A stretch of 64,000 nucleotides of DNA from NCBI GenBank assembly GCA_946623785.1, contig CAMORM010000001.1:1397-65396 (forward strand). Reading direction: 5' to 3'. The notes under the pieces were generated by a model, which was given only the letters and a program-made list of their open reading frames with translations, was not told where the DNA came from and did not search any database. Of the stretch, positions 25,563 through 28,500 are shown piece by piece. Each line of letters begins with the position of its first letter. Within the stretch, counting starts at the first letter, position 1. The translations under genes were made by a program, and so were the position numbers. This DNA comes from an uncultured Verrucomicrobiota bacterium (GTDB lineage: Bacteria > Verrucomicrobiota > Kiritimatiellia > RFP12 > UBA1067).

Positions 25563-28500
25563 ATGCCGATCGACAACATCAACGACCCGTGGCGCAACGA
25601 GGAGGAGGAGCCGGAGATCCAGGCCGCTCATCATCCCGTTCAACAGCAGCAGACGGAAGAAGGCAGCGACCTAGGAGGTCTGCCGGAAGTGTCTCGCGAA
25701 GAGCAGTCAAGAGTTTATCTTGACGCCCTTGCCAGGTCGCAAGGCGCAGAGAGGTTCGAGCAGGAGCAGAAGCCGGAGCCCGAACCAACGCAGAACGGAC
25801 CTTCTCCAAACGATATTGTCGAAGTCGCTGGGCAGCCTCAGCAGGAGACGCAAGAGCCTCCGCCGGACCCGTATGCGCCTACGTGGGAACAGAAGCACGA
25901 CATCCGTCACGTCGACTATGGGATGGGCATGGACGACGAGCGGAGGGCCCGCGACAAACTAGTAGACCAAATCAAGGCCCAAGTCCGTTTCGCACGCGAC
26001 CACGGGCAAGACGTGACGAACGAGGAGTGGGGAGACAACGAACAGATCGACGCCGTTCTGAACGGGTACGGAGTCAGAGAGAACTTTTCTCCAGAAGCCA
26101 CGGACATGTTGAACCGGTTTGCCGAACATGTCGGTGTCAAGTATCAGGCGGCGAAGGACGAGATGGGCCGCTTGGAGGGTGTAGTCAATACCGCGAAGAA
26201 CACGCTCAACCCTAACGCCATCGTTGAAGGATGGGCAGAAACGACGAAGACGCTCGGATGGATGACGGGAAGCGTGAGCGACCAGGACTTCGAGGACTAC
26301 CTTCTCGACAAGATGGACAAGGACGAACTTTCCCGCATCAGCGATCCTGGGAAGGTCGAGGGATTGAAGGACGTTCACGGCGTGCTTGATGCGTTTGCAC
26401 TCGTCGGAAACGTATTTGCCGAGCAGAGTTCCATCATTGCCGAGTCGATGATTGTTGCCGGTCTTTCAGCCGCAACCGGCGGAGCGGCGGCCGGTGCGTT
26501 CGGTGGAGCGAGGCTTGCCGCGCGCGAGGCGGCTGAAAAGGCCGTTCGGAAGGCCGCGCAAAAGGAAATTCGGAAGATTGCGGAGAAGAAGGCGCTCGAA
26601 GCGACGGCTCGCAAGGCCGGAGCGGCTGCGGCGAAGGCCGCAACGGAGGCGGCGGCACGCAAGGCTACGGCGAAGAGCATCGGTAGCAACATCGGCGCTC
26701 TCGTCGTTGACGCGCAGTTCAACCTCGGAAGCAGCGCAGAGCAGCGGATGAGCGAGGCGATGGCGCGCGGCTCAACGCACATCGACAAGGGTGCCGTGTT
26801 CGGGCAGGCGGCTGGGCGCACGTTTGCAGACTACTTCGGCCCGATCCGCAAGATGGCGACGCGTCCGTTCCGCGCCGGTACGACGATTCAGCAGATGGCG
26901 GCTGATGGCGTTCTCACGGACGCGCGGACGTTCGCCGGTGGCCTCGTCGGCGCTGGCGCTCGATATGCAAAGGACGCGTTTGGTGCGGGCCTCTCGTTCG
27001 AGGGCGAGACGATTTCAGACCGCATCACGAACAAGGTCATCAACGACACCTACCTGCTCAACGGCGAGCGAGATTGGACCGACGCATTTGCGAGCGACCT
27101 TGAAACGTTCGTCAAGGGCGGCATCATGTCCGTCACCGGAATCCCGAGCCTCGCTCGGCGCTCGTTCGCAGAAGTCCAGATGAACCGCGCCGTTGACGCG
27201 TTCGCCGACACGAATGGTGCCGCGTTTGACAACGCGTTCGCCAAGTCCCGCCGCGAGCGCGACACTTTTGCAAGTCCCGGATTCCGCTCGCTCGACCTCA
27301 CGTCGCAGCGCTCGATTCTGGAAATGAACCGTCTCAAGGCAAAGCTGGACCAAGAGAACAATCTGGCGAAGAGCGGCACCGCAGGTGAAATCGGGGAGGC
27401 GGCAGGAAACGCGTTCCAGATTCAGAACCAGATCGACAAGCTCCGCGAGACGCTCTCGCCTGAAGGCCGCAAGTGGGTCGATGCGTACAACAGCCAGTTC
27501 AACAGGCCAGGTGTCGGGATGCAGGATTTCGACAAGGCTGTCAAGTCAGACCCGAATGTCGCCGCAAAACTGCAAACGGAATACGCGCCCGACGTGAGCG
27601 GCGTTGACCAAGTGGTTGACTGGGTGTCGAAGCTCGTCGGAAAGGAACTTTCCTACGACAACATCCGCAACGCGGCGAACGAGAACGGCGGTCTTGTCAT
27701 CGACTCCGGCAACGTCCGCATCCGCATCGACGATGGGCTTGAGAACGGGCTCGTCGTTTCCGTCTGCCGAACGGACGGCGGGCCGATGGCAGACACCTAC
27801 GTGAGCGAGTTCCGGCAGGCCGACTTCGCAGAAGATGGCGAGTCCGTTGACAGCTCCGACGCGTTCTACAAGACGTTGCAGGCGGCGACCGGATGCGCCC
27901 GCAAACTCTCCTCGTGGGCGAAGTGGTCTGACGCGCAGACATACGGACGCGATATGTCGTTTGCGAACGCTTTGGCGCAGAAGTCTGGACGCAACGTGAC
28001 CATCATCCGCTCTGCGCGCGACCTTGTGAATGCTGGTCTCGTCGACGAGAGAGGAATCTTCAAGGGAAGCAACGAGCAGGTTCTCGGAGATCTCCCGAAC
28101 GGGCTCAACGGAAAGTGGCGCGGCGTCACGACCGGCGACGGACACATCTACGTGAATGCGTCGGCGTACCGGAGCCCCGCCGAACTCGCCGCAATCATCG
28201 ACCACGAATCGTTCCACAGCCGTTTCATCGAGATGGTCAAGAACGGAGTCGGCGAGAAAGAAGCGCAGAAGATCGCAGCCGATTTCGAGCGCAAATACGG
28301 AAGGCCGCTTTCTGCCGACAATCTCAAGCGGGCGATGAAGGCAACGATCCTCGGCGTCGAATTGACCGCCGACGATTTTGCCGGGTTGAACGACGATGCC
28401 GTCGACCAGAAGCTCGCAAAGACACTTACGAAGAAACTCGACGATGCTCTTGTGTCTCGCGAAGAGCGCCTAGCATATGATTCGGAAGGAATGATTCCGC

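Follow-up and report, generated by a model that had tools for sequence, protein, structure and literature searches.

What does a single HExxH motif do inside a protein of 3,864 residues? The question is raised by a 64,000-nucleotide stretch of contig CAMORM010000001.1, assembled from an uncultured Verrucomicrobiota bacterium; we refer to this whole stretch as the window. Judged from its genes, the window is phage DNA, from a temperate, podovirus-like phage, and its plus-strand structural module ends with one giant open reading frame (ORF). An original prediction, made from the letters alone, had singled out the pentapeptide HESFH in this ORF as a minimal zinc-metallopeptidase signature. Our best explanation as a whole, to which we assign a probability of about 0.5, is that HESFH belongs to a zincin-like metallopeptidase (MPTase) domain that processes the packaged giant polyvalent protein of which it is itself a part. 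The components of this explanation differ in strength. Conservation and profile comparison make it probable that the domain is a divergent zincin-like MPTase related to the C1 domain of the N4 virion RNA polymerase (vRNAP), whereas a role as an autoprocessing protease is a tentative proposal that we rate somewhat below even odds.

The HESFH motif and the family that keeps it

Nucleotides 28203-28217 of the plus strand read CAC GAA TCG TTC CAC and encode H-E-S-F-H as residues 881-885 of the giant ORF, in agreement with the original prediction, which also gave the surrounding residues (AELAAIIDHESFHSRFIEMV) correctly. The elements at the centre of this analysis are:

25563..37157, plus strand: giant ORF, 3,864 residues, uninterrupted; last gene of the plus-strand structural module
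27699..28682, plus strand: HExxH domain region, residues 713-1040, conserved in all homologues
28203..28217, plus strand: HESFH, with H881 and H885 as candidate metal ligands and E882 as candidate general base; invariant in five of five family members

HESFH is the only HExxH in the giant protein, whose composition (37 His and 340 Glu) leads to an expectation of 0.031 such motifs; 3.0% of 20,000 shuffles of the protein contain one. By composition alone the single occurrence is unlikely to a modest degree only: the six-frame stretches of the window contain ten other HExxH strings, which, except for one in a small ORF that is described below, are read here as non-coding overlap frames. We take HESFH to be more than chance because it is conserved in all independent homologues.

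These homologues are few. An exhaustive phmmer search with residues 560-1290 against 1.84 billion representative proteins returned only three relatives. P0001 (4,104 residues) is 38% identical over the whole of the query. The match to P0002 (3,586 residues) is confined to residues 713-895, and that to P0003, an N-terminal fragment of 896 residues cut by a contig end, covers residues 724-896; in the phmmer comparison with these two more distant relatives the best match lies at residues 713-896 and detectable similarity stops just past the motif. Two further sequences came from a metagenome scan: L009, which is distinct and has 44% domain identity, and L010, which is nearly identical to P0002. 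The family then comprises five distinct members, the window protein, P0001, P0002, P0003 and L009, and domain identity among the relatives ranges from 28 to 51%. Their motifs read HETFH, HEQIH, HEFFH and HESFH, and H-E-x-x-H is kept by all. In the five-sequence alignment of residues 770-1040, 16 of 271 window-protein positions are invariant, H881, E882 and H885 among them. The HExxH motif is, on the evidence of this alignment, under selection. The original prediction had named absence of the motif from orthologues as a ground for giving it up; every orthologue that we found keeps it.

Relatives of the giant protein were not returned by several further searches. A word-indexed homologue search with the single domain and with an alignment gave no match, nor did tblastn of residues 480-1280 against 50,697 phage genomes, and a scan of species-representative genomes found no relative. 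Five scans of the viral contigs of IMG/VR likewise found none; three of these used single segments or alignment A1, one used a C-module alignment (with patterns chosen that were of low complexity), and the fifth used a hand-made back-translated pattern for DNxxxRASExGFxxP. A sequence search of the PDB with the family profile gave chance matches only (E > 0.5).

Similarity to N4 C1 and the predicted fold

An HExxH MPTase domain has been described at residues 2130-2448 of the N4 vRNAP by Iyer et al., who unified this C1 domain with the zincins, the HHpred match to lethal factor having P 4.1e-4 (PMC5512222). In a 2026 cryo-electron microscopy (cryo-EM) study, C1 (2124-2375) stands out as a separate subdomain in which an HExxH is conserved and to which no activity was assigned (PMC13434306). 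N4 C1 was the single family that we picked for testing, and it was picked before its sequence was seen.

Using hhalign, we compared the alignment of the five family members with the C1 domains of N4 and 12 other Schitoviridae (13 N4-like vRNAP domains in total) and obtained a probability of 69% (P 4.3e-5, score 41.1, 71 columns). Forty column shuffles scored 13.9±2.0 with a maximum of 18.7, and the reversed alignment scored 15.1. The alignment pairs NVTIIRSARDL with YKIIYGTPTQV, RGVTT-GDGHIYV with YGWTNFDDKTIYL and HESFH with HELVH, which places strand 1, strands 2-3 and the HExxH in register. With the five motif columns deleted or masked, the score was still 31 (31.1 after deletion; P 1.4e-3). 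Only C1 matched among five sections of the vRNAP (P 8.7e-4 with a seven-sequence alignment, compared to P 0.065-0.72 for the others), and when the N4 C1 profile was run against the whole 1,297-column N module of the giant protein the match fell at the HExxH site. The catalytic Glu and both His are invariant in all 13 N4-like sequences examined.

Past the motif, the pairings of EE-x-L-A-Y with NE-F-M-A-W ('LNEFMAW') and of GR..P..EEMADYLFT with GRK.AP..EDMFSNLLFN are suggestive only, and we dropped an independent N4 similarity of the post-HExxH region as not significant. When the N4 domain served as query in a homologue search, the sole match was a fragment of N4 itself.

We considered whether the giant protein could be an N4-type vRNAP and rejected this: BLASTP found nothing, and hhalign of the N and C modules against the RNA polymerase, C2a and C2b sections gave P 0.08-0.66, the variable centre (residues 1283-2638) having been compared with N4 by BLASTP alone. 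Because the rest of the protein shows no RNA polymerase or C2 similarity, we take it not to be a vRNAP. Similarly, the structural ORFs of the window were considered as counterparts of N4 gp51-gp59 and gave no phmmer match. A separate, weak hhalign similarity (P 0.003, 8% identity) links the Gly-rich residues 466-529 of the N module (~26958-27149, plus strand) to N-terminal residues 379-454 of the N4 vRNAP, and is probably compositional.

The elements of the domain around the motif are:

27993..28007, plus strand: predicted strand 1, NVTII, residues 811-815; assigned by DSSP on AlphaFold models, predicted local distance difference test (pLDDT) of the block 72-80 in model 1 and 81-85 in model 2; aligns with 'YKVVYGT' of N4-like C1
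28119..28157, plus strand: predicted strands 2-3, RGVTTGDGHIYVN, residues 853-865; G and T invariant; aligns with 'GWTNFDDKTIYL' of N4
28455..28502, plus strand: SREERLAYDSEGMIPQ, residues 965-980, conserved; E967/E968 (nucleotides 28461-28466) candidate third metal ligand
28590..28640, plus strand: GRAPTTQEEMADYLFTV, residues 1010-1026, conserved; end of the domain

We built two AlphaFold2 models on four-sequence alignments, and both are mediocre overall (pLDDT 68 and 65). Both predict a strand at 811-815, a short helix, strands at 854-856 and 861-865, and an HExxH helix from residue 872. This strand-helix-strand-strand-HExxH unit is the best-predicted part, with pLDDT of 76-85 in blocks of 10 residues in model 2, and HESFH lies inside a long helix (residues 872-912) in both models, where the original prediction had placed it. 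The predicted topology fits the core of three strands and two helices that was described for the MPTases of polyvalent proteins (Iyer et al. 2017, PMC5512222). For one model, the top Foldseek matches in BFVD (E 0.02-1.3) are not significant; many are polyvalent and SprT-like entries.

The third metal ligand is less straightforward. The original prediction looked for a Glu or His 20-40 residues downstream of the motif, and the family alignment holds no conserved Glu, His or Asp there, nor any conserved ligand within about 60 residues. The first conserved acidic pair is E967/E968, 82 residues downstream of the HExxH and after an insert of variable length; variable inserts are found at the corresponding place in polyvalent-protein MPTases (PMC5512222). 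The pair is part of an S-x-E-E-x-[LFI]-A-[YF]-x4-M-x-P pattern, kept in the four members that reach this region and predicted to be helical in the models. Because the post-HExxH region has no significant N4 similarity, the assignment of these glutamates draws on conservation within the family only.

Module architecture and junction peptides

BLASTP comparisons among the homologues show conserved N and C modules that flank a largely non-conserved centre; the list also gives two junction motifs:

25563..29408, plus strand: conserved N module, residues 1-1282; window protein 1-1282 matches P0001 1-1299, and 261-894 matches P0002 331-945
31677..31727, plus strand: junction motif HYSRFASDQTARFANMD, FAS at residue 2043, inside the variable centre
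33468..33518, plus strand: junction motif AQSRFASDASLALADPN, FAS at residue 2640, precisely where the C module begins
33477..37154, plus strand: conserved C module, residues 2639-3864; window protein 2639-3864 matches P0001 2882-4104, and 2933-3642 matches P0002; contains a hydrophobic helix followed by KDEDDDD

Within the N module, the HExxH domain is located in the C-terminal third; the similarity of the most distant homologue ends just past the motif, at residue 894. In the centre, only residues 1427-1513 and 2432-2567 match P0001 by BLASTP. The first of these islands (29841-30101, plus strand) is ~70% identical to P0001, shares identical stretches with L009, is rich in proline and charged residues, and contains GEGSPLA twice (residues 1451 and 1485).

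A variable centre between conserved ends fits the polyvalent-protein concept of Iyer et al. 2017, as read from these alignments. The variable part of P0002 has a near-threshold match to ART-PolyVal (30.7 bits against a cutoff of 31.2) and that of P0001 to PBECR5 (23.7 against 25). The polyvalent setting that the original prediction assumed is in line with this family, which resembles the polyvalent proteins of PMC5512222. The window protein itself has no effector domain detected by Pfam. A second, unrelated-looking HExxH lies in the variable centre of P0002 (HEFGHIQQ, residue 2049) and of P0001 (HETGH, residue 2528), and none is present there in the window protein. A second HExxH and matches of the ART-PolyVal and PBECR5 kind are characteristic of polyvalent proteins.

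The ends of the protein carry features of their own. The window protein, P0001 and L009 do not differ at all over their first ~22 residues (MPIDNINDPWRNEEEEPEIQAA; 25563-25628, plus strand) and diverge right after, and a core of this segment is retained in P0003 (MPYTNINDPWRDEEETPEIKA) and P0002 (NINAPEWVSEGEEPAY); it may be a packaging or portal-docking signal. Residues 3561-3597 (~36243-36353, plus strand) hold the strongest hydrophobic stretch, LILRPMLHFAEAMLLLGLA, followed by KDEDDDDPF, of which the DDDD core is invariant in three of three full-length homologues. The hydrophobic stretch and the acidic run may together form an element of the C module that acts on membranes.

Short peptides recur at the edges of the variable cassettes in each of the three full-length proteins. 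In the window protein they are SRFASDQTARFANMD at 2043 and SRFASDASLALAD at 2640. P0001 contains (K/A/R)FASD(E/D)SLRA(A/S) four times, at residues 1446, 1986, 2225 and 2883, the last again right at the C-module start, and in P0002 [RML]FSS.GS.A occurs at 1804, 2172 and 2444, bracketing the second HExxH domain and the ART domain. Overall, F[AS]S is found 4, 8 and 8 times in the three full-length proteins, where 1.3-1.5 are expected. The four copies of P0001 differ in synonymous codons, which rules out recent DNA duplication as their source and indicates that it is the peptide, not the DNA, that is conserved. In the simplest reading, the xFASDxSL and xFSSxGSxA motifs may be sites of polyprotein processing, and the HExxH domain would be the natural candidate for the enzyme because it is the sole protease-like domain common to all members. 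Cleavage by another protease, or a docking function, could also account for them.

We hypothesize that HESFH marks the metal site and the catalytic centre of a divergent MPTase domain of ~250-330 residues (residues ~713/790-1040). The giant polyvalent protein that contains the domain is most likely packaged by the phage and then ejected, as the position of the gene at the end of the structural block suggests. A Zn2+ ion would be held by H881, H885 and a glutamate further downstream, for which E967 and E968 are the likeliest candidates, and E882 would activate a water molecule. The domain would then cleave in cis the chain to which it belongs, either inside the capsid or once ejected, and cuts at xFASDxSL-type junctions would separate the cargo cassettes of the variable centre from the N and C modules, which are conserved. 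In this scheme we infer that the fold is that of a zincin, that zinc is bound, which residue acts as third ligand, that the protein is packaged, and that it is cut and where. A more far-reaching version, which goes beyond what we consider likely, is a cassette polyprotein: N and C modules for delivery, swappable effectors between them, and junction peptides recognised by the built-in HExxH protease, with an ancestral HExxH module that survives in N4-like vRNAPs. If this were true, one injected chain would be cut into several effectors, and two otherwise unrelated podovirus lineages would be linked by a giant ejection-protein scaffold.

Weighing the readings and comparison with known systems

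Several results weigh against an autoprocessing zincin. No profile of Pfam, NCBIfam or PHROGs recognised the domain at E up to 10, in scans that covered the whole protein, excisions of 180, 356 and 400 residues, and all family members. Foldseek searches of the PDB with both models gave no significant zincin (best E 0.35), with ZMPSTE24, lethal factor and ACE2 appearing only at E 3-5; full-length N4 structures (9PNR etc.) were missing among the listed matches and may postdate the Foldseek library. The hhalign probability for N4 C1 drops to 5-23% (P 9e-4 to 7e-3) with other alignment cuts, an HMM-to-sequence search with N4 C1 (HMM, hidden Markov model) did not find the giant protein, and the post-HExxH region scored 9.1 against N4 alone, compared to 10.0±1.9 for shuffles. 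The same side of the balance holds the lack of a conserved ligand at 20-40 residues, the reported packaging of the N4 vRNAP in unprocessed form (PMC5512222), and the N4 structure paper, which reports no protease function (PMC13434306). Moreover, both the cleavage at the junctions and the protease that would make the cuts are things that we infer. The zincin-like reading of the original prediction thus comes through in part: motif conservation, the strand-helix-strand-strand arrangement before the helix and the profile similarity to the N4 MPTase speak for it, and the profile check against zincin families that it proposed yielded no match to a curated Pfam or NCBIfam peptidase profile.

Much of this evidence would suit a non-catalytic, possibly metal-binding module that has a structural or packaging role and would be retained because the giant protein requires it in order to be encapsidated or ejected. 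No relative of the domain could be detected other than C1 of the N4 C-terminal domain (CTD), in a vRNAP whose domain-containing region is required for encapsidation (PMC5512222), and the cryo-EM work gives the CTD a regulatory role (PMC13434306); the missing peptidase profile and zincin structure match point the same way. We nevertheless consider such a module unlikely, since the invariant Glu and two His in the family and in the 13 N4-like sequences form an active-site pattern, and a purely structural role leaves the repeated junction peptides unexplained. An active zincin could instead work in trans after ejection and cut host defence or envelope proteins, which is one possible MPTase role listed by Iyer et al. 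(PMC5512222) and resembles the envelope-directed role that a preprint proposes for the metallopeptidase of the 2,811-residue phi24B gp47 (bioRxiv 10.64898/2026.04.10.717836). The location of the domain in the conserved scaffold, rather than in the variable cargo where effectors swap, and the recurrent junction motifs, which suggest internal substrates, make this distinctly improbable.

The conservation described above already disfavours a chance HExxH, and we give very little weight to this reading or to membership of a non-zincin class such as the iron/alpha-ketoglutarate dependent HExxH hydroxylases. The motif is short, the window has its ten other such strings, radical SAM-associated enzymes contain HExxH as well (PMC13434306), and no zincin fold match was obtained; set against this are the invariance of H, E and H in five divergent homologues, the low expectation for the protein, the strands that precede the motif helix, and a similarity to N4 C1 that extends beyond the motif. 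On balance, we favour the zincin-like MPTase domain that would act on its own chain.

In the giant polyvalent proteins that phages and plasmids encode, no domain type is commoner than the zincin-like one. We know of no zincin-like domain of a polyvalent protein with a demonstrated substrate. The equivalent domain in the N4 vRNAP has no assigned function despite a solved structure. The rare five-member family described here is a simple test case, as it combines an invariant HExxH in a conserved module with variable cargo and repeated junction peptides. If the domain cuts at the junctions, a polyvalent-protein peptidase would for the first time have a defined site specificity, and this would hint at a former role of N4 C1; if it does not, an ordinary divergent zincin-like domain remains.

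The setting of the giant ORF is that of a temperate, podovirus-like phage:

1224-3773, plus strand: portal; SU10_portal E 4e-8, phrog_332 E 1.5e-32
5205-6200, plus strand: major capsid protein, structural module
37141-38394, minus strand: tyrosine integrase, phrog_1 E 2.6e-24; convergent with the giant ORF, whose last 17 nucleotides it overlaps
41551..41946, minus strand: small HELLH ORF, 131 residues; phrog_1365 E 7.5e-7 (function unknown), SprT-like E 0.18

The nearest cultured relatives of the portal are of the HMO-2011 type together with Rhizobium, Vibrio and Roseobacter podoviruses, at 22-27% identity. As in the window, the gene for P0002 is followed immediately by an integrase gene in convergent orientation, and that for P0001 adjoins a convergent gene of 438 residues. 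The window contains no tRNA genes. The small HExxH ORF that the original prediction had mentioned (...LVHELLHAAL...) exists, on the minus strand, which had been left unstated; it probably encodes a small zincin-like protein, separate from the giant protein. Its LAPETLVHELLHAA is the top six-frame match of the N4 C1 HMM in the window (E 0.0028), over a span of 14 residues only.

Among known systems, the domain is closest to C1 of the N4 vRNAP. The N4 vRNAP and the window protein both have ~3,500-3,900 residues, carry an HExxH domain and are encoded last in a podovirus structural module, N4 gp50 occupying the position that corresponds to the giant ORF. In both, the order is a strand, a helix, a 'G-x-T...D-x-x-I-Y' hairpin and the HExxH helix, followed by a long variable insert and a helix with a conserved Glu, Ala and aromatic residue. 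In contrast to N4, the window protein has no detectable RNA polymerase domain and no C2 similarity, and its domain is in the N-terminal quarter instead of the C-terminal third. The similarity is invisible to BLAST or HMM-to-sequence search, and the window phage is temperate, as its integrase indicates, with a portal of the HMO-2011/SU10 type and not that of Schitoviridae.

PF18818 MPTase-PolyVal, the C-terminal domain of ArdC and P1 DdrB offer a second comparison. Like the window protein, these belong to giant multidomain proteins of mobile elements, with an HExxH and a downstream Glu separated by a variable insert between two helices, and the orthologues of the window protein share the co-occurrence with ART-PolyVal and PBECR5. 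They differ in that no family member matches PF18818, at E up to 10, or any Pfam peptidase model, and that no named LPD domain was detected in the window protein. The gp47 protein of phi24B, which was detected in virions and proposed as an ejection protein (bioRxiv 10.64898/2026.04.10.717836), likewise comes from a podovirus, is very large and has a metallopeptidase domain (MuF-C); it is likened here by description, not by sequence, and its recognisable LPD and MuF-C domains have no counterpart in the window protein. Giant phage proteins are already known to carry MPTase domains, and the domain of this giant protein is most likely a new example.

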